The notes under the pieces: model-generated
What the model was told of the DNA's origin: nothing
Seen by the model: only the letters and a program-made list of their open reading frames with translations
The model's database searches: none
Sequence record: OQ955832.1
Origin: Escherichia phage vB_EcoS_PJ16
DNA length: 57,756 nucleotides
Direction: 5' to 3' (one strand)
Shown here: piece by piece, positions 1 to 47,355 of the stretch
Layout: each line of letters opens with the position of its first letter
How positions within the stretch are numbered: the first letter of the stretch is position 1
Made by a program: the position numbers and the translations under genes

Positions 1-206
1 TATCTTTTTATAGATAACATAGAAAACATAGATATAAAGAAGAAGTAGTATAGAAAGATAGAGATAGTACATATAGTGTATTAGCTGTAAATAGAGCTAA
101 AATAAAAGTCTGGGGGATACCTATTGTAATCTATGTTTTTATGCAAGTCTTTGAAATCATTGTGATTATGTGTTACGTATTTATGTATGTGATCGAAAAT
201 TAGTGC
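1..206. repeat. AT-rich non-coding repeat region (right half of hub A, continuing from the window end)
   Basis: No RBS-preceded ORF; short direct repeats (catagat, GCAYGTTGTG); positions 1-80 are homologous to 17749-17830. Confidence 0.6.
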
Positions 207-323
207 ATGTTGTGCACTAACTGTAAACTTAATACTAACATTGTATTAACTGTAAAACAGGGCGTGTGGACAACCCGTGGGTATCTGTGGGAAACTAATT
301 TAAAATTTATGGGAGACAAATTT

Positions 324-959
324 ATGAAAATTTCAGACCGGGCTAAAAGGGCTGCTCTGGAGTTAACAACCGATCAACTCCGTTTTGCTAACCTGTGGTT
401 AGATCGTGTCAATAACGGCTTCAGCAACGCTCAGTGCGTCTTACACGCTTATCCGGGACATAAAGACCCTGACGCAGCTAAAGTCACCGCACACCGCCTC
501 CTGTCGAATACGAAGGTGTTGAACTATCTGGACGCGATGGGAAGTCATGCGCTTGAATCTGTCGGGGAATCGTTAACGAGTCGTGTCGAGTGGTGGAAGC
601 GCGCGGCAAGCACGGCTGAAGAATTACTGGAACCGTACTGTCAGCGCGTCATCGTCCCTGGTGAAGACGATACAGAAGCGAAACACCTGTGGGTGAACAG
701 TACCGACGATATCCCCAGCCATCTGCAACAGTACGTAGTTTGCTACAAACGTTACATGCTGGGTGGATACATTCTGGTGACACGTGAACTGTTCGACCCG
801 AAAACTCGTGCAAAAGCGTCTGAACAACTGGATAAGATCACCGGGAACAGTATCGACCGTGTGGAATTGTCTGGCGTGGTTGGTAACGTGGTTCAGAGTG
901 TCCCTGAAGGTGCAACCATCGACGACATTGCGCAACTGTACCAGAAGGCGCTCAAATAA
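324..959 (+). CDS. Terminase small subunit (putative)
   Basis: Track ORF 207-959 trimmed to ATG 324 (GGGAGA 7 nt upstream); N-terminal ELTTDQLRFANLWL resembles TerS DNA-binding segment; terminator follows. Confidence 0.5.
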   Translation: MKISDRAKRAALELTTDQLRFANLWLDRVNNGFSNAQCVLHAYPGHKDPDAAKVTAHRLLSNTKVLNYLDAMGSHALESVGESLTSRVEWWKRAASTAEELLEPYCQRVIVPGEDDTEAKHLWVNSTDDIPSHLQQYVVCYKRYMLGGYILVTRELFDPKTRAKASEQLDKITGNSIDRVELSGVVGNVVQSVPEGATIDDIAQLYQKALK

Positions 960-1050
960 CGCCGGAAACCGTTTGCTTTTTCGATAAACAGGGTGGGGTG
1001 GTGCAAGTGTACTGGTGAAGGTGTTAAGTTCGTCAGAGAGCGTTTTAGAA

Positions 1051-1077
1051 AGCCCGGTTAATTCCGGGCTTTTTTTA
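1051..1077 (+). terminator. Rho-independent terminator
   Basis: Stem agcccgg/ccgggct, loop ttaatt, then T7 run. Confidence 0.7.
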
Positions 1078-1311
1078 GTAGAATGTTTTAGGTGCGGGAA
1101 GATTTGTATTAATGAAACTTTTCGCGTCATCAAGAGTTCTAAAGAAGCCATAATCTTTGTGATTCATTGTCACGTTGTATGGGTAATCACAGTTAAAACT
1201 TAAAGTCATAAAATAGATCCTGCCAATTTCTTTACCATTCTCAAAAATCGCAAGGTCTTTCGTAAGCAGTGAACCTGTTCCTAAAGCATATGCTGGTTCA
1301 AAAGTTTTCAT
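1075..1311 (-). CDS. Hypothetical protein (78 aa)
   Basis: Track ORF; start overlaps stop of upstream small ORF in ATGA arrangement. Confidence 0.4.
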   Translation of the reverse strand: MKTFEPAYALGTGSLLTKDLAIFENGKEIGRIYFMTLSFNCDYPYNVTMNHKDYGFFRTLDDAKSFINTNLPAPKTFY

Positions 1312-1460
1312 TTGAATTCATACTCCACAATACCAAATTCGTTAATAATTTGTGCTTTATAAAAACAACCTTTCGATGCCAGTTTATAGGCTTGTTCCAT
1401 AGTCATTTCACGATATTCAGCCATTGAATTTTCTGTTTCTAATATCATCAGTGTAACCAT
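1308..1460 (-). CDS. Hypothetical small protein (50 aa)
   Basis: Not in track; ATG with GAGGA RBS about 8 nt upstream; stop overlaps next start (ATGA). Confidence 0.35.
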   Translation of the reverse strand: MVTLMILETENSMAEYREMTMEQAYKLASKGCFYKAQIINEFGIVEYEFK

Positions 1461-1493
1461 TTTCCGGTTCCTCACAATTCGTTGTCTATGTGA

Positions 1494-1540
1494 GTAATTT
1501 ACACTTCCCTGTGTAATCCGTCAAGAATTATTTTAAATTT
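1494..1540 (-). promoter_or_regulatory. sigma70-type promoter with UP element (conserved family)
   Basis: Minus strand: UP AT-tract, -35 TTGACG (1519-1524), 17-bp spacer, -10 TAAATT (1496-1501). Confidence 0.65.
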
Positions 1541-1860
1541 TGTTTCAGTAACTTGTACGTTTCAGGACATTTACCGGATCCGCGTTCACGTTCATAAGCG
1601 GCACTAATAACGTCCCAGTTTTCAATCACACCTTTAAACGCCGGACACTTTTCAGCAATCAATGGAAAACTGTTTCTGATTTCCGGTACAGCTTCAACCA
1701 GGAACCAGCAACGGCGAAAATCGGAAACGTCAAGGGGTGCTCTAAACTCCCAGTCGTAACCCATTTCATTACCCGTGTGAATACAGACCATCGTTTTAGA
1801 ACTTAGTCCGGTTTCACCAGAACATAACCACTGAATAATACGTTCCTGTTCTGTTTTCAT
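1528..1860 (-). CDS. Hypothetical protein (110 aa)
   Basis: Track ORF; ATGA-coupled to upstream gene. Confidence 0.5.
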   Translation of the reverse strand: MKTEQERIIQWLCSGETGLSSKTMVCIHTGNEMGYDWEFRAPLDVSDFRRCWFLVEAVPEIRNSFPLIAEKCPAFKGVIENWDVISAAYERERGSGKCPETYKLLKQNLK

Positions 1861-2024
1861 TTCGTATCACCTATCATGAGCAAACAATCTGGTGTGTTAA
1901 TCCAGAAACGATCACCAACATCCGGGGAAGCATCCCAGGGCATCTTTTCAGTTACTTCCAGTTCAAGATCACCACGGGTATTTTCAGCGATAATTTTTAC
2001 AGGTACACCGTCATAGGTACTCAT
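1857..2024 (-). CDS. Hypothetical small protein (55 aa)
   Basis: Not in track; ATG overlaps RdgC stop (ATGA) and its stop overlaps next start. Confidence 0.4.
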
Positions 2025-2935
2025 CGTTTTGCCTCCCCGCCGAGTGCCACCACAAGTTGTTTAATCAGCGCCTGAAGTTCACCTGTCATTAGTACAAAAT
2101 CAGCGTCAAATCGTGCCAGAACATCTTCAAGGTCAATATCGTCATTCTGTCCGATCAGTCCATCACAGAACTTCACACGGTTTAATGTCATGCTGTCAGT
2201 TAGCGTAAACGTTACCCGCTGCTGCCAGTCCAGAGCCAGCTTTGTAACGACTTTCCCTGCTTCAATATGTGTGGCTATTTCATCACTGGTTAAATCCTGT
2301 TTTTTAACGCGTGCAACACCGCCGTCAGTCAGGATTGCTTTCAGTTCAGCAGCGTCACCCATTGTAAAACCTGTTGGCGCGTTTCCTGAACGTACCCACT
2401 CCGTTGTTGTCAGTTCAACAGGGTTTTCAGTTGTCAGTGGGACTACAGGCAGACTACCCAGGGATTTACGCAACAGCGCTAACGCATCTTCAGCCCGTTT
2501 AGCACTGGACGCATCAACCACGATTAACCCGTTAGTGATGTCGATCCATAACTGTGTACGACTGTTTTTAACGAACACCCGTGGTAACAGACTGTGTAAC
2601 ACTTCGTCTTTCAGCGCGTCTTTCTCTGTTTTCTTCAGTTTACGCGCCTGTTCAGCTTCCAGTTTGGCGATTCGCGCGTTCAGATGTTGTTTAATGACCG
2701 GGCCAGGAATAATCTTTTCCTGTTTCTGAATAGTCAGCAGATATTGCCCATTAGCCTGGTGAACCAGTGTATGATGTTGTTCAGTTGCCGGAATCCATCC
2801 AGTACGCGCCATATCCTGTGAACCGCACGGATTGAATTGAAACGCACACAGGCTGTCTTCCAGCGTTGGTAAATGGGCCATTAATTGCATCGGGTTAGTC
2901 AGGCGATAAATGATTGCGTTTTTAAAGAAGTTCAT
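2021..2935 (-). CDS. rdgC: Recombination-associated protein RdgC
   Basis: 304 aa; N-terminus FKNxxxYRL and long blocks ([53 protein letters not shown]) match enterobacterial RdgC as recalled. Confidence 0.85.
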
Positions 2936-3129
2936 AGTTCAATGTCCTGTGGTTTGATAGTAACTTTTCCGTCAAGAACAACAGTGTTTACACCACTTAG
3001 TTTTTGTTCTTCGTATAAATCAAGTTCAACATTAATTCCGACGATTGAGGCTTCGTGTATCGTGCTGTTTAACTGTTTAATAAGATCTAAAATTCTACGC
3101 TGATAATCTTGTGCTTCTGTTAGTTTCAT
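2932..3129 (-). CDS. Hypothetical protein (65 aa)
   Basis: Track ORF; ATGA-coupled chain. Confidence 0.5.
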
Positions 3130-3323
3130 ACACCACCTTCATTTTTAATATAGTCAGCAACTAAATCTTTGACTTCTACAATTTTAACAGCACCATTATA
3201 ATCAACCTCAATATGACAGTGACCATAACGCGCCGCTGTTAACCTGGCGTCGTTCAGTATTTTTAAATCTTTCAATACTTGTTCAATTGCTTGTTGTTTA
3301 ATTACAGATTCGTGCACAGTCAT
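3126..3323 (-). CDS. Hypothetical protein (65 aa)
   Basis: Track ORF; ATGA-coupled chain. Confidence 0.5.
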   Translation of the reverse strand: MTVHESVIKQQAIEQVLKDLKILNDARLTAARYGHCHIEVDYNGAVKIVEVKDLVADYIKNEGGV

Positions 3324-3475
3324 TTCCTGTTCCTTCTTTTCTTCGCCTCGCGTCGGGCTTTTGCAATACCTGTTTTACGATGTGGTTGTTTACGGTCAGT
3401 AATAAGTCGTTGTGGTGGAATACCCCACAATGTGTTAGTGGAACTTAACAGTTTAATCGCGTAATCAAGAATCAT
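3320..3475 (-). CDS. Hypothetical small basic protein (51 aa)
   Basis: Not in track; ATG overlaps upstream stop; Lys/Arg-rich C-terminus. Confidence 0.4.
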   Translation of the reverse strand: MILDYAIKLLSSTNTLWGIPPQRLITDRKQPHRKTGIAKARREAKKRRNRK

Positions 3476-3765
3476 ACGTTCACCACTTTTAAATCAGGTG
3501 TCAGGCTACGATGGTCATGATGACCGTTCATCGTAAACGAGAAAGTGTAATCGCACTGCTCACCGTCGAACGTGAAGGGGATTTGAAACCCTGTATCGTC
3601 AGTGATGCGAACTTTAACCGGGTATTCAGCTTGCGGATCGACTGCTACAACAGTGCCGAACGGTTGAGATTTGCGACGTGCGAGAATTTCTAACAGTCGT
3701 GGACTGGTGATTTCTACGTGTTGACCAGTTTTAAACATGGTGATAACTCCAGTTGTTTTACACAA
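3472..3765 (-). CDS. Hypothetical protein (97 aa)
   Basis: Track ORF; first gene downstream of promoter at 3794. Confidence 0.5.
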   Translation of the reverse strand: MCKTTGVITMFKTGQHVEITSPRLLEILARRKSQPFGTVVAVDPQAEYPVKVRITDDTGFQIPFTFDGEQCDYTFSFTMNGHHDHRSLTPDLKVVNV

Positions 3766-3768
3766 ACT

Positions 3769-3815
3769 GAAGTCTATCTGATAATGTGTAAACCGTCAAG
3801 AATTATTTTAAACTG
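3769..3815 (-). promoter_or_regulatory. sigma70-type promoter with UP element (conserved family)
   Basis: -35 TTGACG (3794-3799), 17-bp spacer, -10 TAGACT (3771-3776), AT-rich UP element. Confidence 0.55.
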
Positions 3816-3980
3816 TCCATCACTGTCTGCAGCGTAACAAATACCGTGACTGTAGATTGTCGCAGTTCGTGTAATGCGTTGATAGTCTGAGCATTGGTTA
3901 CGAACACGCAGGTCATACCCGGACTGTATGATTAGCCAGGTTGCAATGATGGCGAGTAATTTTAAAACGTATCTGAACAT
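3774..3980 (-). CDS. Hypothetical small membrane/secreted protein
   Basis: Track ORF 3774-3989 trimmed to ATG with AGGAG RBS; hydrophobic N-terminus; 3' end overlaps promoter. Confidence 0.4.
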   Translation of the reverse strand: MFRYVLKLLAIIATWLIIQSGYDLRVRNQCSDYQRITRTATIYSHGICYAADSDGQFKIILDGLHIIR

Positions 3981-4051
3981 GTTCCACACTCCTGTTTGAT
4001 AGTTTCAGGGTAGTGTGGAACTGGCGAAGATGGTATAGGATTTACGATAAT

Positions 4052-4441
4052 TTAACAGGGGTTTCGACTGGCATAAAACTTTGTACCGACTGGCATACGT
4101 TCCATGTTGAGTTTTCCACGTAGGTGTTTGTATGTTTCACCGGGAGAACGTAGTTCTGCTTCACACGGTCTTTCAACAATTTCACCCACGGGATCACCTA
4201 ACGCGCCTTTCCATCCTTCCCACATTGCAGTCATAGTGATAAACCAGACACTACCTAAACTGGCTTTCTTGTTCTCCCAGAACCAGTCTATGAACTCTAT
4301 CGACATTCCGTGCTGTTTTGCAATTTCATAACGGTCATCCACTTTTTTAACCCTCCACCCATATTTAGCACGATTCATAGCAGTCCGTTCATCATTCGTT
4401 GTGAACAGTACACGCCCGGATTTATGACAAATGTTCCACAT
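4052..4441 (-). CDS. Hypothetical protein
   Basis: Track ORF 4052-4474 (alternative GTG start); trimmed to first ATG; no recognisable motif. Confidence 0.4.
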   Translation of the reverse strand: MWNICHKSGRVLFTTNDERTAMNRAKYGWRVKKVDDRYEIAKQHGMSIEFIDWFWENKKASLGSVWFITMTAMWEGWKGALGDPVGEIVERPCEAELRSPGETYKHLRGKLNMERMPVGTKFYASRNPC

Positions 4442-4741
4442 TATAACTACCGCCTGAATAGTGATGTTTACCACACAACGATCTACTTACACGTTTCACA
4501 CTTGGCCCCTTCAGCCTTGTCTATTCCACACTGCAAATATTCATTTTCTTTTTGTTCTAATGTTTTTCCACGACACAAACCAACAGTGGTACTTTCTGGT
4601 GTCATTTTATATTTCTGATAGTTTGCTTCCAGTTGTCGAACACGGTGATAGTGTGCCGGATACATTGTGCGTAACATGTGGATTTCACCACCTGTCACCC
4701 GTGGTAAACTGTATAGAACAGTTACAAACGGACCGATAACC

Positions 4742-6505
4742 ATGAATAAGTTTACTGGAAATATTCATAATTACCCGCGCTGGCGTGATGCCTACGCAAA
4801 TGACGAACGTATCTGGCGAAAAGGTCAGCCACGACCAGATTACAAACAGTGTTACATTGACCGCATCAACCTGTTAAACCGTATGCGCACGGATCGGGCA
4901 ATTGTCCCGGTATTGAAAAAGTATTACGAAACAAACCCGGTAGCATTCATTCTCGACTGGGCGTTTACTTATGACCCGCGTAACGTCGGTACTGAGTACC
5001 CGCCTAACATGCCTTTCTGCCTTTTCGAACGTCAGATTGACATGGTTCAGTTTGTTTATGAAGCGCTTGAAGACAAAGAGAAAGGGCTTTGGGAAAAATC
5101 GCGAGACTATGGTGCGACCTGGGTAGCCTGTGGTTTGTCCGTGTGGGCGTGGCTGTATCGTCCCGGTTCTTCAGTTGGCTGGGGATCACGTAAAGAGCAG
5201 CTTGTTGATAAACTGGGCGACCCGGATAGTATTTTTGAAAAGATTCGCCAGATTATCCGCGCATTACCACCGGAATTACGTCCTGTTGGTCTGCGTGAAA
5301 AAGACCATCTGGTTTACATGAAATGTATCAACCCTGAAAACGGTGCAACAATTACTGGTGAAGCTGGCGATAACATCGGTCGTGGTGGTCGTAAATCTGT
5401 TTACTTTCTCGATGAAGCGGCACACGTAGATCGTCCTGAACTGATCGAAGCGTCGTTGTCAGCTAACACCAACGTCCGTATTGACATCAGTTCAGTTAAT
5501 GGCGTTGGTAACGTTTTTTATCGTAACCGTAAAGCGGGTCTGGAATGGGAACCGGGTAAGAAATTACCCCGTGGTAAATTGCGTGTCATGGTTCTGGACT
5601 GGCGTGATCACCCGGCTAAAGACGACGAATGGTATAAACGAGAAAAACAATCGTTCGCTGAAAAAGGTTTACAGCATATTTTTGCACAGGAAGTTGACCG
5701 CGATTATGCCGCTGCTGTTCAGGGTGTACTGATTAAAGCTGAATGGGTACGCGCTGCTTTTGACGCGTTCCGTGACACAGAATGGCGCAAAGCTAATGGA
5801 CTACTTACACCAACAGGTCAACGTATCGCCGGACAGGATGCCGCAGACGGTGGTGAAGACGCAAGCGCACTGGTAATTGCTCACGGTGTATTCCTGACAC
5901 ATCTGCAACTTGACCACAGGGGCGCTGAACTGGCTGCACCAGGAATGTTGACGATGGCTAATATGCTGGGTGTTGATGAATACTGGTACGAAGTTAACGG
6001 TGTTGGTACAGGCGTTAAAGTAGCGGCAAATGACCGAAAAGATACTTTACGCTTCCGTGTGCGTCCGTGGTTACCGAATGGAAAAGTTGTGGATCCGGGC
6101 GGTGATATTATCGGTGGTACGAAACCAGGTGACAAAGACCGTAAATCAAACAAAGATTATTTCTCAAATTATAAAGCACAGGCATCGTGGGCGTTACGCT
6201 TGCGTTGTCAGCGAATTTATAAATGGTATGTGGAAGGTCAACCACAGGATCCAGACGAAATCATTCTGATTGATCCATCACTGGAAAATGCACAACGGTT
6301 AGAAGCTGAGTTAAGCCAGCCAACGTATACCAGTAACGGTGCCGGGAAGATTGTGATCGACAAGAAACCAAACGGTAGTAAGTCACCAAACTTTTTCGAT
6401 GCTGCGGTTATTGCACTATCACCAAAACGTACCGAATTCGTTGAAGAACCGTTTACTGGCGGTGTGAATCCTGTTGGTACTCCTGAATACGGTGACATTT
6501 TTTAA
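4742..6505 (+). CDS. Terminase large subunit
   Basis: Track ORF 4667-6505, likely start ATG 4742; size and ATPase/nuclease-like organisation (DEAAH-like FLDEAAH) typical of TerL. Confidence 0.8.
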   Translation: MNKFTGNIHNYPRWRDAYANDERIWRKGQPRPDYKQCYIDRINLLNRMRTDRAIVPVLKKYYETNPVAFILDWAFTYDPRNVGTEYPPNMPFCLFERQIDMVQFVYEALEDKEKGLWEKSRDYGATWVACGLSVWAWLYRPGSSVGWGSRKEQLVDKLGDPDSIFEKIRQIIRALPPELRPVGLREKDHLVYMKCINPENGATITGEAGDNIGRGGRKSVYFLDEAAHVDRPELIEASLSANTNVRIDISSVNGVGNVFYRNRKAGLEWEPGKKLPRGKLRVMVLDWRDHPAKDDEWYKREKQSFAEKGLQHIFAQEVDRDYAAAVQGVLIKAEWVRAAFDAFRDTEWRKANGLLTPTGQRIAGQDAADGGEDASALVIAHGVFLTHLQLDHRGAELAAPGMLTMANMLGVDEYWYEVNGVGTGVKVAANDRKDTLRFRVRPWLPNGKVVDPGGDIIGGTKPGDKDRKSNKDYFSNYKAQASWALRLRCQRIYKWYVEGQPQDPDEIILIDPSLENAQRLEAELSQPTYTSNGAGKIVIDKKPNGSKSPNFFDAAVIALSPKRTEFVEEPFTGGVNPVGTPEYGDIF

Positions 6506-6666: not shown

Positions 6667-7365
6667 ATGTCTGACATGACTTTAGTTCCCACTGGCGGTT
6701 TCGGCGGTGAAGCTGGCGCGGCTGCACTTGGTGGTGGTATCGGCGGTCTTATCGGTTCCTGGTTCGGTAATGGCTGGGGTGGTGCCGGTGGTTGGGGTGG
6801 TCGTGGTATTGGTGCTGCTGAAGGTGTTGTTGTTCAGAACTCTCTGGATACTAACGCTATTCTTCAGGCTATTAATGCGGCGTCACTGGCTAACATTCAG
6901 GGTCAGAATGGTACTAACCTGACTGTTGAACGCTCAGCAGCTTCTACCTATAACGGTCTGACCCAACAAAACACACAAAACCTGCTGGCAAACGTTCAAG
7001 GTTTTGCAGGTCTGAACACTCAGATTCAGCAGGGTACTAACACGGTGACCAATGCGATCTGTGCGTCTGAAACTGCTGCACTGACTCGTTCTTTCCAGGC
7101 ACAGTTAGCGGCTGAGAAGTGTTGCTGTGAAACCAACCTGAATATCGAACGTCAGGCAGAAGCAACTCGTGCACTGATCCGTGATCAGTTCGCACAGTCT
7201 CAGGCTGTTCTGATTTGTGACCTGAAATCTCAGATTCAAACCCGTGACTTCCAGTTGTCTCAATTGTCACAAACGTCTCAGTTGGCGTGCAAAATTAACC
7301 AGGTCGATCAGCTTATTAACTTCAAGCTGCCTACTCCGCAAACTCCACCGACTGGCTGCTGCTAA
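6667..7365 (+). CDS. Glycine-rich protein with Cys clusters (unknown function)
   Basis: 232 aa; N-terminal GGxGG/GxxxG-rich tract, Q/N-rich middle, CCC and C-terminal GCC; good RBS AGGAG. Confidence 0.6.
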   Translation: MSDMTLVPTGGFGGEAGAAALGGGIGGLIGSWFGNGWGGAGGWGGRGIGAAEGVVVQNSLDTNAILQAINAASLANIQGQNGTNLTVERSAASTYNGLTQQNTQNLLANVQGFAGLNTQIQQGTNTVTNAICASETAALTRSFQAQLAAEKCCCETNLNIERQAEATRALIRDQFAQSQAVLICDLKSQIQTRDFQLSQLSQTSQLACKINQVDQLINFKLPTPQTPPTGCC

Positions 7366-7415: not shown

Positions 7416-7775
7416 ATGCATTACAAACCGTATTACGTTATCAAAAAAGACGATGATGACGATGAAGAGGAAGATATAGAAATTCATCACCATCATCATT
7501 ATCACCACGGGCATCACCCGGACACGATGGGAGTATTTCATCATGATAGCTATGCTGGCGAACATGGTTCAGTTATGGCCCATGTTAAAGCACGTATGGA
7601 TAACCCTCCTTCGACTTGGGCGTCGTACCACGATAAGCCCGGCGGGATGATGTCCATTGTTGAAATGGAATATCGCGAACTGATGGAAGAAAAAACCGAA
7701 GGTTCGACGTCTGGTATTAAAAAAGAGCTAACGGATCTGGCTGCAGCCTGTATCCATGCACTTAAAAAGATGTAA
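7416..7775 (+). CDS. Acidic/His-rich protein (unknown function)
   Basis: 119 aa; DDDDDEEED followed by HHHHHYHHGHH; helical E-rich C-terminus. Confidence 0.6.
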   Translation: MHYKPYYVIKKDDDDDEEEDIEIHHHHHYHHGHHPDTMGVFHHDSYAGEHGSVMAHVKARMDNPPSTWASYHDKPGGMMSIVEMEYRELMEEKTEGSTSGIKKELTDLAAACIHALKKM

Positions 7776-39787: not shown

Positions 39788-41644
39788 TTACCGAAGTGGT
39801 GCAACGAGTTTTTCAGCTTCTTTGATGTAAAAATCATAATTGAGTGTTGCCCGGTTAAAACGTTTCATGTCGTTACATTCCGTGGTCAACCAACCTTTAC
39901 ACACGGACATGCGGCGTTCAGGCGCGTCAGGGTTCAGTTTCAGTGATTTTGCCAGCGGTGGCATGACTTTTGTCAACGGTGCACCATCTGTACTGACGTA
40001 ATAACGGGTAATGTTCTGAACCTGTTTATCACCCCATAATAACTTGCTGTTACGCGGTACTTTCGTCACCAACATAAAATCGTGAATGTCTTCGTGTGAT
40101 GTTATAAAATCACGAATGTCTTTATTGTGTACCAGTGCTGCTTCAGCCGCTTTTGCGACAACCTGCATACTGTGGTTTTGATGCCAACCAAGGTCAACAC
40201 TGTGGCAATAAGCACCTTTACGTTTAACTTTCTTACCACCTTCATAAACAGCGATGTAGTTATTTACATCGCGGATAAACATCACGTCATAAATCGCTTC
40301 TTCAAGCTGGAGTCTGGTTAATTTTTCCCACGCGTGACGAACCTGTTCTACTTGTCCGATAAATACTCGTGGTACGTAAACAGTAAGACCATCTGTGTTA
40401 GCCTGAATCATGGATAAACCAGGGATTTTCAGAAGTTCTTCAGCCAACATGCACAAAAGTAACTGTCCATTAATCGTAATAGCCATTGTATAAGCAGGAT
40501 CGTAGAATGGACTGTATACGTTATTACTGTCACCATACACACCGTTTAATGCCAGTTTTAACATTGCATTTTCTGGTGTACCTTTCGGGTAACTGGAACG
40601 CATGTCATAAACATTTTTATAAATGGTGCAAAATTGTTTTCCCAAATGTGCAGGGTAAAGTTCATTACTAATCGCAAGGTTTGGATAAAAACTGGCAACA
40701 TCCAAATCGATGATCACATAATTTTCAGTGGACCTTATAGTTTGAGATTCAATAGACCCGTGGATACCACCCGTACCAAAATCAAACGAGAACCCGTTAA
40801 TATCTGCGCTTAAATCAGTAAACACACCTTTTGTTTCAGTGATGACCTGTTGACGTAACCAGTTAAGAACACGATTAAATTCAGGCTGTTCAAAACGGAC
40901 ATAAGGGAAAATCACGCTGTTCAATGCGATTGATAGTCTGTGCGTCTGTCGTGGTTTTCTGCTACCCGGTTCGAAACATTGAATACCTGATTTTTCAAGT
41001 TCCATAATGAAATAGTCTTTACCGATTTTCGTGTCATTATGGTTCATGAAATTACGACCGTATTTAGCAGAAAGTTCACGACGAAAATCTATCAGCTTTT
41101 TACTGTGTTTATAAAACATCAAAGTCGCTTTCAAATCGTGTATCAGATATTGACGAAGCGTATCAATTTGAGAATTGGTTAAATAAGTCCCTGGTGTAAA
41201 CGGGAGGTCTTCAATGTTTTCCATTCTCATATTGAATTCAAGTGTTTTCAGACTTGTTCGTTTTGCCTGATTGTCGAAATGATGAATTTTATACAAATCA
41301 AGCTGGGGAACTATCCAGTCTTTTTCCCACACCATATGAGCAAAACGATTTTCATCACCAGCGTTAATTATCGAATCACCTTTTTTGTAAATGTCTGCGT
41401 TGGTGATATACATGATGTTGTTCAAAATAGAATGCTGAACAGGATAGTCGTAACCCAGATTGTTATAACCAACTTCTTCAGCACGATGTTCACGCAAATA
41501 TTCTGTGAACAGGTAAAAAGCCTGACGATCGTCGCGACGATGTGAAATCTCAAAAATATAAGGTGTTTCAGTTAATGCGTGAATAGCACCGAACAGGAAA
41601 ACATTAGGATAGTTTTCAATATCGTGAACGTAAGCATCTGACAT
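39788..41644 (-). CDS. DNA polymerase, family B-like (compact)
   Basis: 618 aa; motif A DLDVASFYPNL, motif B KLALNGVYG, motif C-like ANTDGL, exo I-like HDIEN. Confidence 0.75.
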   Translation of the reverse strand: MSDAYVHDIENYPNVFLFGAIHALTETPYIFEISHRRDDRQAFYLFTEYLREHRAEEVGYNNLGYDYPVQHSILNNIMYITNADIYKKGDSIINAGDENRFAHMVWEKDWIVPQLDLYKIHHFDNQAKRTSLKTLEFNMRMENIEDLPFTPGTYLTNSQIDTLRQYLIHDLKATLMFYKHSKKLIDFRRELSAKYGRNFMNHNDTKIGKDYFIMELEKSGIQCFEPGSRKPRQTHRLSIALNSVIFPYVRFEQPEFNRVLNWLRQQVITETKGVFTDLSADINGFSFDFGTGGIHGSIESQTIRSTENYVIIDLDVASFYPNLAISNELYPAHLGKQFCTIYKNVYDMRSSYPKGTPENAMLKLALNGVYGDSNNVYSPFYDPAYTMAITINGQLLLCMLAEELLKIPGLSMIQANTDGLTVYVPRVFIGQVEQVRHAWEKLTRLQLEEAIYDVMFIRDVNNYIAVYEGGKKVKRKGAYCHSVDLGWHQNHSMQVVAKAAEAALVHNKDIRDFITSHEDIHDFMLVTKVPRNSKLLWGDKQVQNITRYYVSTDGAPLTKVMPPLAKSLKLNPDAPERRMSVCKGWLTTECNDMKRFNRATLNYDFYIKEAEKLVAPLR

Positions 41645-41724
41645 AATAAAATCCTGATAAGTAAATGGGGCGCTATGGCCCCATGTCTGTTTAAAGCGGT
41701 ATGTCGTCCCAGTTCCAGTAACTA

Positions 41725-42588
41725 TCAGTAACCGTTACCGTTGAGAAAATTAGGGGCCGGGGTGGTCATTACCATATAACCGTTAGCGATCAGTTGTTCA
41801 TCGTTCCAACCTTGCGCAATAAACTGTTCGTAAGTTGCACCACCTGCTTTTTCAGTCATTACCTTCACAGGCGCTGCTACAGGTGCTGCCGCTGGTGTAG
41901 GCGCTGCTACAGGTGCTGCCGCTGGTATAGGCGCTGCTACAGGTGCTGCCGCTGGTGTAGGCGCTGCTACAGGTGCTGCCGCTGGTGTTACGCCGATCGG
42001 ACGTGCACCTTCAGGCATTGCAGGTGCAGCACCGAACACAGAGGCCGGAGCCGGACCGGAAATGATTTCTTCACCTGCATAAAGCAATTGCGCCATTTCC
42101 ATATTGATATACACACCAGCCTGATTACCTGTACGACCGTTTGCAACAGATGACCCGCTGATACGGTAGTAATACCCTTTTTTCGCCAGATTTTTATCAA
42201 TAACTGGCTGGTACGCTGCGTTATAAACAGGACACGCGTCAATAGCCACGTTGCGTGAGAAACCAATAACCCAGTGACCAGCATAACCCGTTTTACTCGC
42301 ATGTTTCGGATCGTCACCGTTAATAATTTTCCATGCGAAAGTTGGTTGTTGTGGTTCGCCGTTCACATAGTGTGAGTTAGCCGCTCGCATGATCGCCTGG
42401 AATACCGTACCCAGTTCACCTTGTTCTTCCCACCAGTTCGCCGCTGTTTTAGGAAACGCCAGACCAACCCACCAGTTATGTTTTTCAGGTGCTAACGGTT
42501 TATTTTCGTGGTCATGAGTGTTGATGTCGAAAAAAGAACCGCCAACCAGACGACCAACCGGAGTTACAAAAGATTCTTTCTGTGCCAT
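41725..42588 (-). CDS. ssDNA-binding-like protein (DUF2815-like, putative) with Pro/Ala repeat linker
   Basis: N-terminal VTPVGRLVGGSFF pattern; four PTPAAAPVAA repeats; sits between nuclease and polymerase. Confidence 0.4.
   Translation of the reverse strand: MAQKESFVTPVGRLVGGSFFDINTHDHENKPLAPEKHNWWVGLAFPKTAANWWEEQGELGTVFQAIMRAANSHYVNGEPQQPTFAWKIINGDDPKHASKTGYAGHWVIGFSRNVAIDACPVYNAAYQPVIDKNLAKKGYYYRISGSSVANGRTGNQAGVYINMEMAQLLYAGEEIISGPAPASVFGAAPAMPEGARPIGVTPAAAPVAAPTPAAAPVAAPIPAAAPVAAPTPAAAPVAAPVKVMTEKAGGATYEQFIAQGWNDEQLIANGYMVMTTPAPNFLNGNGY
41871..41990 (-). repeat. 30-bp tandem repeat x4 (in-frame, Pro/Ala-rich)
   Basis: gcgctgctacaggtgctgccgctggtgtag repeated with 1-2 substitutions. Confidence 0.85.
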
Positions 42589-42603
42589 GTTATTAACCTT
42601 CTT

Positions 42604-43749
42604 TTAAAGTGGACGTGCGCCAGTCGGCATCGTCACGGGTTTATTAAAAACAGATTCTGCCAGTGTGCTGTGACCTTTACGCGGGTCACTGTCAGGTACT
42701 AAAACTGGCTGACCTTCTGGTTTTGTAGTACACATGTCAACAAGTGCCGGGGGCAGTGATTTTTCCAGTGTTGACAACGGTTTTAATTTACGTTCGTACA
42801 ATGTTTCAGGGTTTACACCAAACATGGGTGCAGCACCGATCAGTTTTCCTTCGTCCGTAAGCTGACGTCGGGTTTGCTTTGTTGCGAGTTTAAAACCCGG
42901 TAAAGCCTTACCCATGCGAACAAAATGTAACCCCTGAGTATGTAACGCTGTTTTTGCTTCAGAAGAACGCGTATACAGTTCTTCAAGAAGTGCCAGACGA
43001 CGCGCTACTTCTTCTGGCGTAAGTGATGCTGGTGCATCAAGAACAGTAGCCAATTCTAAAACCCTCTCATACATCGCCGGACACATACCACGCGCCGGAC
43101 AGTAATGACAATGACTACCAACATTTAACGGTGCGTCTGGTTTATGTGCTTCGTTAAACCCGTGTTTAAATCGTTCAACCCAGTCCATCAATGTCACCCG
43201 GTTAAACTCCCATCGTCTTACAGGTCCGAGTGGGTGATAAGCCCGTGGCTGAACGATTGTGAACACAACACGCTTAACAGTATCAATACAACGTTGATCC
43301 AGTGCGTAATAGATCCCCTGTGAGTTATCAACTGCTTCAACTGCAACATGACCGTATTTATAATCCCATACGTAAAGCGTATCAGTATTAAAGTCATACC
43401 AGCGATAATCACAGGTTCCGTACTGACCGGGTAACAACCAGTCAATGTGAATGCGAACTTCTGAAAACAGCGGATCGAGTTTCGCACCAACTGAAAGAAC
43501 ATCTGCTATAAAGTCATCCGCGTAAATGTGCATGTCTTCAGTAACCTGAACACCGTTAGGAGCAAGACACGGCATTAATGGCGGTTTACCTTTAATCTTC
43601 TGTTCTAACACCCAGTGCCCGGCTGTACCTTCTTCAGCACTGGGTGACGATGGTTCTACATAGTCAATCCGCTGTGACAGTTGAACGCTACCCGGACAAG
43701 CTAACCAACGTTTTGATCCACTGGCACTAAAGGTAGCGTGACTTGTCAT
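42604..43749 (-). CDS. PD-(D/E)XK nuclease, DUF2800 (Cas4-like) family
   Basis: N-terminus HATFSASGSKRWLACPGS and C-terminal Cys cluster CHYCPARGMC. Confidence 0.65.
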   Translation of the reverse strand: MTSHATFSASGSKRWLACPGSVQLSQRIDYVEPSSPSAEEGTAGHWVLEQKIKGKPPLMPCLAPNGVQVTEDMHIYADDFIADVLSVGAKLDPLFSEVRIHIDWLLPGQYGTCDYRWYDFNTDTLYVWDYKYGHVAVEAVDNSQGIYYALDQRCIDTVKRVVFTIVQPRAYHPLGPVRRWEFNRVTLMDWVERFKHGFNEAHKPDAPLNVGSHCHYCPARGMCPAMYERVLELATVLDAPASLTPEEVARRLALLEELYTRSSEAKTALHTQGLHFVRMGKALPGFKLATKQTRRQLTDEGKLIGAAPMFGVNPETLYERKLKPLSTLEKSLPPALVDMCTTKPEGQPVLVPDSDPRKGHSTLAESVFNKPVTMPTGARPL

Positions 43750-44501
43750 CAGAATGCCCCACCCATTTGTTTAACAGACTCAGCCTGACCGACAATATTT
43801 TCAGCATCAGCAGGGGCAGCGTTGATACGTTCAATCAGTTCGATGATAGATTTCAGTTTCACCGGGTCATCAATTTGCATCACGTTCTGAGTTTCATACA
43901 GTCCCATGATTCGCTGACTTAACGGCGCAGCACGGTCACCCGTAATTTGTCCAAACATCTGCATCAGTGCTGACTGAAGAACCTGGGTGTTATAAACTTT
44001 AGCCGGATCCGTGGTTACAGGTTGCTCAGCAGGCGCGACTGGTGCTGCTGGTGCTGCTGGTACAACTGGAGCTACCGGAGCGGCAGGAACCGCTGGAGCA
44101 GGATCAACAGGTGCTACATAACCCGGTGCAAGTTCTGCAGGTCCAGTATAACGCCCTGCTTCAACTGCTTCAGCGATAAGTTCACGTTTAACACCGTCAA
44201 CAAACGCTTCATCCAGTTTTTTCTTCTGACGCCACAGACCGTCACCTTTGTTCAGGGATTTACTGTCAGTGTGGATACGCGGATCATGACGCAAACCCCA
44301 TTTGTCGAACTCTTCAGTGCTGGTTTCGTTATCGTCAACATCTTCAGTTGGTGCAGATACAACAGGTAGTGATTCAGCAACGACAGAAACGATTTCTTCT
44401 TTCGTAATCGGTGAGACACTTTTACCAGCAATCGCCGCTGCCAGATTGTTGATCGCAGTTTCCAGACCCGGAGCAGTTACAAGTAATTTAACTTCGAACA
44501 T
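43749..44501 (-). CDS. Hypothetical protein with Pro/Ala-rich linker (250 aa)
   Basis: Track ORF; first gene after promoters 44557/44620. Confidence 0.5.
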   Translation of the reverse strand: MFEVKLLVTAPGLETAINNLAAAIAGKSVSPITKEEIVSVVAESLPVVSAPTEDVDDNETSTEEFDKWGLRHDPRIHTDSKSLNKGDGLWRQKKKLDEAFVDGVKRELIAEAVEAGRYTGPAELAPGYVAPVDPAPAVPAAPVAPVVPAAPAAPVAPAEQPVTTDPAKVYNTQVLQSALMQMFGQITGDRAAPLSQRIMGLYETQNVMQIDDPVKLKSIIELIERINAAPADAENIVGQAESVKQMGGAF

Positions 44502-44676: not shown

Positions 44677-47355
44677 GTGAGTCAACAACCACTTCGTTAT
44701 TACCAACAAGATGCAGTTAACAACGTGCGCCAGGCATGGTCGAACGGTGCTAATGACGTGATTCTTGTGCTTCCCACTGGCTGTCATGCTAAAGACAGTG
44801 AAATTCTTATGTACAACGGTGATGTTATAAAAGTACAGGATGTTTTACCTGGTGATTTATTGATGGGTCGTGATTCATTACCACGAACCGTGTTAGCGTT
44901 AGCTCGTGGCAGAGAAGAAATGTTTGAAATCATCCCAGTCAAAGGGTCACCTTTCCGTGTAAATAAAAATCACATATTACATTTGATACATACTGAATCA
45001 AAAGAAGAAATAGACATTTCTGTAAGTGATTACTTACAGAAATCAAATTATTTCAAACATTGCCACAAGTTGCTTCGTACGGGGGTTGATTTCGAATATC
45101 GCGAACCACCGACTTTAGACCCGTGGTTTGCCGGGATTATGATCGGTGATGGTAGTTACAAATCAGGTACACCACGTCTGACAAATGCAGACTCAAGTAT
45201 TTTAGAAAAGGCTACTTTTTACGCAAACCTTTTTGGATGTGTCTGCAAAGATGTAAAAGGTAACAACTGTGTTACACGTTATTTCGGTTATCCCGGGTCA
45301 TCGCGTTCGGTTAGTAACCCGTTGAGCGATGCGATGAAATCTGATGGATTGTGGGGGAAAATCGCACATGAAAAATCAATACCTGATGTGTATAAAAAAG
45401 GAAGCAGAAACACACGTTTAAACGTTCTGGCAGGATTAATTGATAGCGACGGATATATTTCACATAAGGGCGTTGATTTTGTGTCCAAATCACAGCAGTT
45501 AGCCGCTGATTTAGTGTTCGTTGCAAGAAGCCTGGGGAAAGCCGCGTATTACAAAGCCTGTGTTAAATCATGTCAAACGGGTAATGCAAACATTTACTAC
45601 AGAGTGAGTATTAGTGGCGATTTAAGCGATGTACCATTCGTTAGAAAACATGGTGATTTAACGAGAAAGCAGAAGAAAAATCATTTAGTAACGGGCTTTT
45701 CTGTTCGGTCTGTTGGTGAAGATAATTTTTATGGTTTTATGGTTAACGGTGACAATCTTTATCTTACGTCAGACTTCATCATCCATCATAACAGTGGTAA
45801 AACACGTACTATGGCTGAACTACTAAAATCCGACGGTGTAAAAGTCATCCAGGCACACCGCAAAGAACTAGTTAGTCAAATCGCAATGGCTGTTGCTCGC
45901 CAGGGGTTAGCACACAGATTTATAGCGCAAAAAGATACTGTTAAGTTTGCAACTAATCAGCAGATGAAAACGCTTGGTTACAGTACCTATTCCCCCGGTG
46001 CTGACATCGTTATTACCAGTTCACAAACGTTAAGAACAAAACAGTACGAACGATGGTACAACGACGTGTCTCTTGTATTCAGCGACGAAGCGCATCACCT
46101 GGTGCGTGGCACACAGTGGGGAGACTGCCGGGAAAAATTCCCTAACGCTAAAGGTCTGGGTGTTACAGCCACACCGATCCGTGCTGACGGTAAAGGCCTG
46201 GGTCGTCATGCATCAGGTTACGCAGATCAGATGATCATTGGTCCGTCAATGCGTGAATTAATCAGTCAACAACACCTGGCTGATTATCGTCTGATCATGG
46301 CTGAAACAGACCTGGAATTAACCGCAGAAATGATTTCTCATACGACGGGTGATTACAAACCATCTGCGTTAAAAAAAGCGATGGAAGATTCAAACATTGT
46401 TGGTGATACCGTTAGTACGTGGAAAACGTATGCAGATGGTTTACTCACTGTTGTGTTTACGTGTGATGTGGATTCTGCTGAAGCACTTGCAAAAGAATTT
46501 CGCGATGCTGGCATTCCTGCAGAGGCGATCAGTTCACGAAACAGTAATCAGGAACGAGCGGATATTCTGGAACGTTTTGAACGACGTAAAACACTCGTGC
46601 TATGTAACAACGATTTATTCGGTGAAGGATACGACTGTCCGGCAATGGAATGTGCAGTAATGGATCGCCCCACAGAATCTTACTCTTTGTTTGTACAACA
46701 AATGGGTCGACCATTGCGTTTCAAACCCGGTAAAAAAGCACTGATTATTGATAAAGTCGGTAATGTTCGTCGATTTCTGGCCCGTGGTTTTCCACTTCCT
46801 GATCAGCATTACAACTGGTCTTTAGATGACCGTGACCGTCGTTCATCTAACAGCAGTGGGAACAGTAATACAACATGTACAAACAAGGGTGATCCTGATA
46901 ATGGTATTCCACCGTGTCTGAAGCCTTATCCGTCTGGTCTTCCGTGCTGCCCGTATTGTGGTCATGTTCCTGAAAAAGCCGAACGCTCAGGCCCGGATCG
47001 TGTAGAAGGTAATTTACGTGAACTGACACCTGAAGAACTGGAAGAATTACGCCGGGCAGTGGTGATAATCGACCGTGACCCTGTTGCAGTAAAAGAACAA
47101 ATGTTAAACGCGGGTGCACCCCCTGTTGCAGCTTACAGTGCAATGAAAAACATTCAGGCAATGAACGATGCACAGCGTAAGTTACGCAGCATGATCACCA
47201 CATGGGCAGGTATTCAGCGTGATAAAGGTATACCCGTTGATGACGCTTACAAGATGTTTTACAGGGTGTTTGGTGTTGATGTACTTAGTGCACAGGGCTT
47301 ACGTACTCGTGAAGCTAATGAACTCGCCGCAAGGGTTGCAAGTTCATTAATCTGA
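44677..47355 (+). CDS. SF2 DEAH-type DNA helicase, intein-containing precursor
   Basis: GTG start with AAGGA RBS; Walker A split as LPTG / SGKT by intein; DEAHH, TATP, QQMGRPLR motifs; C-terminal CxxC zinc ribbon. Confidence 0.85.
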   Translation: MSQQPLRYYQQDAVNNVRQAWSNGANDVILVLPTGCHAKDSEILMYNGDVIKVQDVLPGDLLMGRDSLPRTVLALARGREEMFEIIPVKGSPFRVNKNHILHLIHTESKEEIDISVSDYLQKSNYFKHCHKLLRTGVDFEYREPPTLDPWFAGIMIGDGSYKSGTPRLTNADSSILEKATFYANLFGCVCKDVKGNNCVTRYFGYPGSSRSVSNPLSDAMKSDGLWGKIAHEKSIPDVYKKGSRNTRLNVLAGLIDSDGYISHKGVDFVSKSQQLAADLVFVARSLGKAAYYKACVKSCQTGNANIYYRVSISGDLSDVPFVRKHGDLTRKQKKNHLVTGFSVRSVGEDNFYGFMVNGDNLYLTSDFIIHHNSGKTRTMAELLKSDGVKVIQAHRKELVSQIAMAVARQGLAHRFIAQKDTVKFATNQQMKTLGYSTYSPGADIVITSSQTLRTKQYERWYNDVSLVFSDEAHHLVRGTQWGDCREKFPNAKGLGVTATPIRADGKGLGRHASGYADQMIIGPSMRELISQQHLADYRLIMAETDLELTAEMISHTTGDYKPSALKKAMEDSNIVGDTVSTWKTYADGLLTVVFTCDVDSAEALAKEFRDAGIPAEAISSRNSNQERADILERFERRKTLVLCNNDLFGEGYDCPAMECAVMDRPTESYSLFVQQMGRPLRFKPGKKALIIDKVGNVRRFLARGFPLPDQHYNWSLDDRDRRSSNSSGNSNTTCTNKGDPDNGIPPCLKPYPSGLPCCPYCGHVPEKAERSGPDRVEGNLRELTPEELEELRRAVVIIDRDPVAVKEQMLNAGAPPVAAYSAMKNIQAMNDAQRKLRSMITTWAGIQRDKGIPVDDAYKMFYRVFGVDVLSAQGLRTREANELAARVASSLI
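44782..45792 (+). mobile_element. Intein with double-LAGLIDADG homing endonuclease in helicase P-loop
   Basis: Begins with Cys after LPTG, ends HN before Ser; LAGLIDSDG and FAGIMIGDG motifs; 337 codons in frame. Confidence 0.8.

Follow-up and report, generated by a model that had tools for sequence, protein, structure and literature searches.

A full-length RdgC of apparently ancient enterobacterial descent in the terminase region of a 9NA-like phage

RdgC is a documented antagonist of RecA (Briggs 2010, PMC2965237), and the earlier note on this DNA was right that the protein modulates RecA. The window, i.e., the whole stretch of 57,756 nucleotides analyzed here, carries an rdgC gene whose product resembles E. 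coli RdgC, in places residue for residue. The locus raises the question of whether this likeness betrays a recent capture from an enterobacterial host, as the earlier note had proposed, together with a second one: what would a RecA antagonist bring to a virulent phage that encodes replication and annealing proteins of its own? The joint reading that we favor, at a probability of about 0.6, is that the gene encodes a functional RdgC, that its acquisition is old, that 9NA-like phages have since inherited it vertically as an accessory gene that they can do without, and that its product would act by obstructing RecA.

The RdgC protein and its conserved residues

The rdgC CDS was located at 2021..2935 on the minus strand (ORF list, Pfam, PHROG, and NCBIfam), starting with ATG, ending with TGA, and encoding 304 amino acid residues. 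The product belongs to the RdgC family (Pfam PF04381, NCBIfam PRK00321); it matches PF04381 with 379.2 bits (cut-off 25, E 1.8e-113), and the alignment runs end to end, with protein residues 3-301 facing profile positions 2-298 of 298. It matches PHROG 724 ("exonuclease recombination-associated") with an E value of 3.7e-126 and passes both the NCBIfam equivalog NF001462 (410.8 bits, cut-off 330) and NF001464 (328.1 bits, cut-off 227). Of the NCBIfam models, the enterobacterial equivalog NF001460 scores highest, yet the 466.8 bits obtained lie below its cut-off of 501, compared with 664.3 bits for E. coli RdgC. Among known structures, that of E. coli RdgC (2OWL_A) was matched with an E value of 3e-126, phage residues 2-304 being aligned with residues 2-303, and that of P. 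aeruginosa RdgC (2OWY_A) with an E value of 1.4e-65. An AlphaFold2 monomer computed from an alignment of 20 phage-clade sequences, too shallow to yield a usable model, had a mean pLDDT of 53 and a pTM of 0.40; a model of our own is superfluous because a crystal structure with 65% identity exists. The product of 2021-2935 is a genuine, intact, full-length RdgC of the enterobacterial type, and the ORF list, the end-to-end Pfam alignment, and the 2OWL match all bear out the 304-residue RdgC named in the earlier note.

Aligned by BLASTP with chromosomal E. coli RdgC, the window RdgC shows 197 identities over 305 positions (65%), with 77% positives and 3 gap positions, a value well above the 35% below which the earlier note was prepared to give up the resemblance. 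Four runs are free of mismatches, namely residues 89-106 (18 residues), 108-119 (12), 152-167 (16), and 223-240 (18). The long stretches of near-identity described in the earlier note do exist, but the protein as a whole, at 65%, is not near-identical to its E. coli counterpart. The identity reaches 83% in residues 71-122 and 82% in residues 201-240, which correspond to the finger domain and the interface helix of the base domain, and is 44% in residues 1-70. Within these N-terminal 70 residues, the identity fraction is 0.77-0.84 inside the phage clade and 0.72-0.79 inside the chromosomal group but 0.42-0.49 between the two. The net charge is −2 for the window RdgC versus −8 for E. coli RdgC, and the mean net charge per monomer is −3.2 for the phage clade versus −9.0 for chromosomal RdgC.

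The electropositive finger (tip) domain comprises codons 78-116, equivalent to E. coli residues 77-115, and maps to 2588..2704 on the minus strand. The fingertip residues R98, K99, K101, and K102, which correspond to E. coli R97, K98, K100, and K101, are each basic in at least 120 of the 121 phage-clade sequences; E. coli RdgC depends on these basic fingertip residues to load onto circular DNA (Briggs 2010, PMC2965237). The gate interface lies at codons 119-121 (R-V-F; 2573..2581, minus strand), and its residues R119 and F121, corresponding to E. coli R118 and F120, are invariant in all 121 phage-clade and all 47 chromosomal sequences. The horseshoe (base-domain) dimer-interface helix covers codons 213-228 (2252..2299, minus strand), where Q213, E219, H223, and K228, the counterparts of E. 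coli Q212, E218, H222, and K227, are invariant in 121/121 phage-clade sequences. The roles of the gate and horseshoe residues in E. coli RdgC have been described (Briggs 2010, PMC2965237; for the gate also Ha 2007, PMC1885664). In P. aeruginosa RdgC, mutating eight pore residues lowers dsDNA binding (Ha 2007, PMC1885664), and at these positions (P. aeruginosa R4, K70, R81, R122, K146, R198, R208, and R252) the window RdgC has K or R in 8/8 cases. Over the 12 basic fingertip and pore positions together, nearly all of the 121 clade members carry K or R, a few having Q, H, S, or N at single positions. Judged from the alignments, the residues defined by mutagenesis are all retained in the window RdgC.

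Genome context and distribution among phages

By its similarity to other phage genomes, the window is assigned as the nearly complete genome of a virulent 9NA-like (Nonanavirus/Sashavirus) siphophage. Its first 25 kb are 97.5% identical to Sashavirus BDX09P1 over 83% of the query and also match the E. coli phages Bas82 KarinMuster, AVIO78A, and PDP46, the relatives from Salmonella and Klebsiella being more distant. Phages of this type are virulent and use pac/headful packaging (PMC4153490). The replication and recombination module was located by tblastn of annotated Bas82 proteins, which matched the window at 93-99% identity: a DNA polymerase, a Gp2.5-like ssDNA-binding/annealing protein, and an exonuclease lie within 39791..44501 on the minus strand, and a helicase (45775-47352) and a primase (48164-50515) lie on the plus strand. 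A tRNA scan of the window found none.

The genes terS (207-959, plus strand, PHROG 51) and terL (about 4742-6505, plus strand) flank a leftward cluster of the ORF list at 1075..4743 on the minus strand, which consists of about 12 small accessory ORFs and rdgC, its sole large gene. Small genes interspersed among virion genes are a known trait of 9NA-type phages (PMC4153490). Upstream of rdgC, an ORF of 65 amino acids (2932..3129, minus strand) ends in a TGA stop that overlaps the rdgC ATG as ATGA in the sequence gaactATGAact, and downstream, the ATG of an ORF of 55 amino acids (1857..2024, minus strand) overlaps the rdgC TGA in the same way (aaacgATGAgt), both ORFs being taken from the ORF list. 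The ATGA overlaps at both ends of rdgC point to translational coupling within an operon. The 65-residue product gave a weak PHROG match only and no Pfam match, and the 55-residue product has homologues in Klebsiella phages, with 82% identity to KP13-27 and e270.1 by tblastn. No recognizable domain was found in the rdgC neighbors with PHROG and Pfam, and no PADLOC defense model matched RdgC or three neighbors at E ≤ 0.1. A promoter and terminator scan of 900-4900 returned counts not above those of shuffled sequence and is uninformative on the operon boundaries.

RdgC-family genes are common in phages; a tblastn search with the window protein found matches in 506 phage records. Among the named phages, the identity to the window RdgC is 89-97% in E. 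coli phages (Sashavirus BDX09P1 97.4%, AVIO78A 96.7%, PDP46 92.8%, and Bas82 KarinMuster 89.2%), 85-86% in Salmonella phages (Solent, Sergei, and SP069), and 78-80% in Klebsiella phages (KP13-27, VLCpiS10a, and e270.1). In a search of a 5.8-billion-protein collection, the best 120 of 3,864 matching 90%-identity clusters were all 79-95% identical and lay on phage-sized contigs, none of them longer than 61.6 kb. The orthologue has already been annotated in FSL SP-062 and SP069 ("RdgC exonuclease") and in Solent, Sergei, AVIO78A, Bas82, and the Klebsiella phages, other labels being "exonuclease recombination-associated" and "putative recombination-associated protein".

In Bas82, Solent, KP13-27, and e270.1, rdgC occupies the same site, in a leftward small-ORF cluster between terS and terL. 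The RdgC identities of these four phages (89, 86, 80, and 78%, respectively) parallel those of TerS (94, 94, 87, and 86%), and the divergence of rdgC keeps in step with that of TerS and TerL across the phages of E. coli, Salmonella, and Klebsiella. Along with rdgC, orf3472, orf3774, and orf4052 have homologues in 4/4 of these relatives, the Klebsiella phages having only a partial homologue of orf4052; elsewhere in the cluster, the small ORFs are mosaic. At the terS-terL locus of phages 9NA and Sasha, rdgC is absent, which indicates that the gene is dispensable. Taken over the phages compared, rdgC appears to have been inherited vertically over a long time in the 9NA-like group, with occasional loss. 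Comparisons between phage copies gave dN/dS values of 0.09-0.17, with dS reaching 1.8, which argue for purifying selection on a gene that is functional rather than decaying.

Possible roles of the phage RdgC

E. coli RdgC forms a toroidal dimer around DNA, inhibits RecA strand exchange, the RecA ATPase, and LexA cleavage, and counters the RecFOR-mediated loading of RecA; it is a non-specific, nucleoid-associated binder of both dsDNA and ssDNA (PMC2965237). The window RdgC is most likely a DNA-encircling ring dimer of the same kind that hinders RecA on DNA, and we infer ring formation, DNA binding, RecA antagonism, and a benefit to the phage from the residue conservation and the 65% identity. 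In the mechanism that we propose, the basic finger would load the phage RdgC onto DNA, and the ring would encircle the duplex with no sequence preference and obstruct the RecA filament in strand exchange and in its LexA co-protease activity. Expression from the translationally coupled leftward cluster would give the infected cell a higher dose of RdgC. This surplus would deny host RecA and RecFOR access to the intermediates of phage replication and recombination, so that recombination-dependent replication would fall to the phage exonuclease and the Gp2.5-like annealing protein; the surplus RdgC would also damp SOS. The literature searched held no experiments on any phage-encoded RdgC, and the role in vivo is extrapolated from E. 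coli. It counts against this model that suppressing SOS is of no obvious use to a virulent phage and that 9NA and Sasha manage without rdgC. The idea in the earlier note that the phage manipulates host recombination through RdgC is nevertheless plausible.

The lower acidity and the clade-specific N-terminus of the phage RdgC hint at specialization, and given the divergence in charge and in the N-terminal region, its partner interactions or its affinity may differ from those of host RdgC. A reading that goes further would make the RdgC of 9NA-like phages a specialized anti-RecA or anti-defense takeover factor derived from a host regulator, more than a spare host copy. In such a scheme, the remodeled N-terminal third and the loss of about 6 negative charges per monomer would allow the protein to out-compete host regulation or to evade it, and RecA-dependent processes, such as SOS, the induction of rival prophages, and defenses that sense RecA or DNA damage, would be shut down in the course of lytic infection. 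We put this forward tentatively, as a possibility on the unlikely side.

A RecA-independent role in DNA protection or nucleoid organization is doubtful. Here, the ring dimer would coat or cap phage DNA, such as headful ends or rolling-circle tails, and either shield it from RecBCD and other nucleases or organize replicating DNA. The non-specific, nucleoid-associated binding of dsDNA and ssDNA by RdgC would suit such a function, the reduced negative charge of the phage clade could tighten DNA binding, and pac/headful packaging implies exposed linear ends; in addition, a Gam-like gene was not noticed in the Bas82 annotation. However, rdgC is dispensable in 9NA and Sasha, and E. coli RdgC is not known to block RecBCD, which also weighs against protection.

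Quite unlikely is a role resembling that of RexA, in which the RdgC fold would serve as a DNA-binding switch, a phage-exclusion factor, or a developmental regulator instead of a RecA antagonist. RdgC and lambda RexA are structurally homologous (PMC11077077), Casjens and colleagues raised a RexA-like action as a possibility for the RdgC homologues that lambdoid phages carry (PMC12315714), and prophage-borne RdgC copies adjoin CI-like repressors (L055); the divergence of the N-terminal third of the phage RdgC would also be consistent with a changed role. In the window, no RexA model of PADLOC was matched at E ≤ 0.1, and no RexB-like partner was found among neighbors that are devoid of recognizable domains.

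Origin of the gene and comparison with known systems

The phage rdgC appears to descend from the enterobacterial rdgC lineage; at 11 derived sites, the Enterobacterales uniformly differ from the Pseudomonas and Vibrio-phage outgroups, and the phage clade shares their state at 11/11. How old this descent is bears on the earlier note's proposal of a recent capture. If taken from present-day E. coli or Salmonella, rdgC would be a moron newly derived from the host and would identify that host. We consider such a capture very improbable. The overall identity of 65% and the identical runs of 12-18 residues would fit it at the protein level, but the synonymous sites are saturated: in the codon alignment with E. 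coli rdgC, the nucleotide identity is 63%, pS is 0.749, and dS is about 4.7 or undefined, compared with a dS of 1.23 between the rdgC genes of E. coli and Salmonella. Even in most of the stretches of identical protein sequence, only 30-55% of the third positions agree with E. coli rdgC. Among 5,426 complete E. coli genomes searched by blastn, the chromosomal rdgC aligned in 5,425, but the alignments, about 70% identical, covered only 68-74% of the gene, and in none of the genomes (0/5,426) did a copy reach a coverage of 80%. The GC3 of the phage gene, 0.443, is phage-like (0.393 ± 0.043 for the long ORFs of the phage, z = +1.1) and not host-like, the values for E. coli and Salmonella rdgC being 0.599 and 0.655, respectively.

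The exception is the finger segment, codons 81-112, which shares 83% DNA identity with E. coli and uses the same codon at 21 of the 28 identical residues, versus 42% elsewhere in the gene (binomial P about 4e-4). A patch of gene conversion with E. coli was considered for this segment and rejected, as the excess is equally high against Serratia (20/25) and occurs against other hosts; its presence in 5/5 phage copies tested further rules out such a patch. The codon likeness is a property of a Lys/Glu/Ala/Leu-rich (AAA/GAA/CTG/GCG-rich) segment with strongly preferred codons and, being common to all phage copies, does not speak for a recent transfer. The identical runs of the protein coincide with columns at least 97% invariant over the phage-clade and chromosomal sequences combined, and since these runs make up the finger, gate, and interface helix, they reflect constraint and not recency.

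The phylogenetic comparison of phage and host copies, which the earlier note had named as a check, also went against a recent capture. In neighbor-joining (NJ) trees, the window RdgC and 14 representative relatives form a phage clade with 100% bootstrap, and the chromosomal Enterobacterales sequences are monophyletic to the exclusion of this clade in 84.5% of the bootstraps, with the family-level taxonomy reproduced; these trees are NJ with Kimura distances only and have three outgroups, two of them phage copies. The Salmonella representative, RdgC of "Salmonella phage S.Kent 1-2-1", was counted as chromosomal; taking it as a phage copy (64%) was rejected because the sequence comes from a host chromosome, its identity to E. 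coli RdgC being 93%. In a scan of one genome per species, the RdgC proteins from many Enterobacterales were all 60-66% identical to the window RdgC. The latter is 62-67% identical to each of 47 chromosomal Enterobacterales RdgC sequences and equidistant from all families, compared with 70-93% for E. coli RdgC against the same set. The distance to P. aeruginosa RdgC is 1.09 for the phage lineage versus 0.89, which indicates a faster phage branch. From the phage clade, the family distances range from 0.458 (Enterobacteriaceae) up to 0.529 (Morganellaceae), and those of the same families to the Pseudomonas outgroup range from 0.868 up to 0.929; as the two gradients mirror each other, they reflect differences in rate and not affinity to a donor. 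For naming a donor family, the informative columns among the shared derived sites are too few (1-5 per comparison). On these comparisons, the split from chromosomal rdgC would be roughly as deep as the radiation of the Enterobacterales families, with an uncertain branch point, and the acquisition by the phage group is probably very old, not recent, as would also fit a deep phage clade that is syntenic across three host genera.

Taken at face value, a BLASTP search would seem to bear out a recent capture. Database proteins labeled "RdgC [Salmonella enterica]", 84-87% identical to the window RdgC, lie on contigs of about 54-59 kb, a phage size, inside bacterial assemblies. Of these entries, P0036 (87% identical) was examined; its gene lies beside terminase genes on a contig of 55,935 bp, which proved to be a whole phage genome. 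The useful outcome is a correction: the host-like amino acid motifs reflect constraint on the finger and the dimer interface, not recent transfer, and they place the host only at the level of Enterobacterales. The support for host assignment claimed from rdgC holds at the level of this order but does not extend to the genus, and the call of Escherichia comes instead from the similarity of the whole genome and of RdgC to other phages.

That rdgC is a decaying or non-functional passenger, as its absence from 9NA and Sasha and the non-essential P1 homologue (hrdC, in a CRISPRi screen; PMC10695390) might suggest, is hardly credible against full-length intact frames in over 120 clusters, the low dN/dS, the conservation of all functional residues, and translational coupling to both neighbors. 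Phage RdgC is already known, with a PHROG of its own (724), P1 HrdC, and annotations in near-identical phages, and the protein described here is ordinary, nothing new in kind.

Compared with E. coli RdgC (P36767; PDB 2OWL), the phage RdgC is within one residue in length, 65% identical end to end, and shares the finger, gate, horseshoe, and pore residues, so that a toroidal-dimer mechanism would apply by inference. It is not a strict ortholog, however, for it falls outside the chromosomal clade and below the NF001460 cut-off. The locations differ as well, E. coli rdgC lying between mak and ppnP and the phage rdgC in the leftward accessory cluster between terS and terL. In other 9NA-like phages, the orthologous rdgC has the same position and operon layout, and the differences are only drift and mosaic small neighbors. 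RdgC-family genes also occur on P1-like plasmids and in lambdoid prophages, and some mobile-element copies are fused to an FtsK-gamma domain. In the case of P1/P7 HrdC and the RdgC of lambdoid prophages, the proteins likewise belong to mobile elements and branch outside the chromosomal clade but share only 58% identity with the window protein. The trees do not support placing them together with the 9NA-like clade (bootstrap ≤33%), and they may be independent acquisitions. The surroundings of these temperate-element copies are also different, P1 hrdC adjoining the dmt methylase and the prophage copies adjoining repressor or replication genes. Lambda RexA, a non-specific DNA binder, is a distant structural homologue of the RdgC center and base domains (PMC11077077), with no detectable sequence similarity to the window RdgC. 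RexA lacks the finger (tip) domain and the ring closure, both of which the window RdgC retains, and acts with RexB in the lysogen, whereas the 9NA-like phage type is virulent.

Charge and fixed substitutions in phage RdgC

The RdgC proteins of the 9NA-like phage clade, to which the window protein (2021-2935, minus strand) belongs, are consistently less acidic than the chromosomal RdgC proteins, with a mean net charge of -3.2 (range -7 to +1) versus -9.0 (-11 to -6). Ten substitutions, such as E72Q, Q126R, R70Q, and R123K, are fixed in the phage clade, and the charge changes caused by the loss of Glu at positions 195 and 203, replaced by Ala, Ser, or Thr, are near-fixed.

Records with probably misleading names

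Plain BLASTP alone would give the false impression of a close host copy, through entries named for Salmonella. The entries titled 'recombination-associated protein RdgC [Salmonella enterica]' show 84-87% identity to the window protein and lie on contigs of ~54-59 kb within Salmonella assemblies. In the one Salmonella-named entry that we examined, P0036, a protein from the clusters matching the window protein (locus L095; assembly GCA_005555735.1), the terminase genes adjoin rdgC, and the contig that carries it (AADEQG010000015.1, 55,935 bp) is a whole-phage contig, not host chromosome.

Host-type RdgC is also encoded by a record named for a phage, OR851377.1 'Salmonella phage S.Kent 1-2-1' (locus L085; 1,994 bp, UNVERIFIED_ORG). 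This RdgC is 93% identical to that of E. coli and is placed among the Enterobacteriaceae chromosomal copies; despite the phage label, the record is almost certainly Salmonella chromosomal DNA. Enterobacterial rdgC was likewise observed in records named for a Firmicute ('Vagococcus sp. WN89Y', locus L004), with an RdgC 90% identical to that of E. coli, and for a Pseudomonas ('Pseudomonas lundensis I31', locus L033), with an RdgC that groups tightly with Serratia quinivorans. Both assemblies are probably wrongly labelled or contaminated.

Genes around terS and terL

Because rdgC is absent from the terS-terL leftward cluster of the type phages 9NA and Sasha (positions 1-6500 of each; loci L093 and L094), and the number of small ORFs in this cluster differs, with nine in 9NA and only three in Sasha, the cluster is a hotspot at which genes are gained and lost in the 9NA-like group. 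The 140-aa ORF of the window's cluster (4052-4474, minus strand) matches DUF5490 below threshold (23.9 bits versus 27); its identity is 99% in the E. coli phage Bas82, and 56-74%, over partial alignments only, in the Salmonella and Klebsiella relatives. For the homologue in the Salmonella phage Solent, the annotators recorded a weak likeness to T4 Gp55.3.

Two ORFs on the plus strand downstream of terL are odd. In the 232-aa ORF (6667-7365), the N-terminus is rich in glycine, and both a CCC motif and a GCC at the C-terminus are present; the 119-aa ORF (7416-7775) contains the acidic run DDDDDEEED followed by the histidine tract HHHHHYHHGHH. Neither has a match in Pfam, and their Bas82 homologues are annotated as 'hypothetical'.

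RdgC fused to FtsK-gamma in prophages

A second, prophage-borne rdgC copy was observed in Serratia quinivorans (NZ_CAMKGL010000001.1; L023:2989-4131, in the numbering of the compared locus), located directly behind the genes for a replication initiator (lambdoid-type) and a helicase loader (P-like). In its 380-aa product, RdgC (PF04381) is fused at the C-terminus to the DNA-binding domain FtsK-gamma (PF09397, 80.5 bits), and the 382-aa copy of Pectobacterium sp. B1J-3 (locus L074) clusters with this protein in the tree. A domain architecture in which an RdgC ring is joined to a winged helix that reads sequence is unusual.
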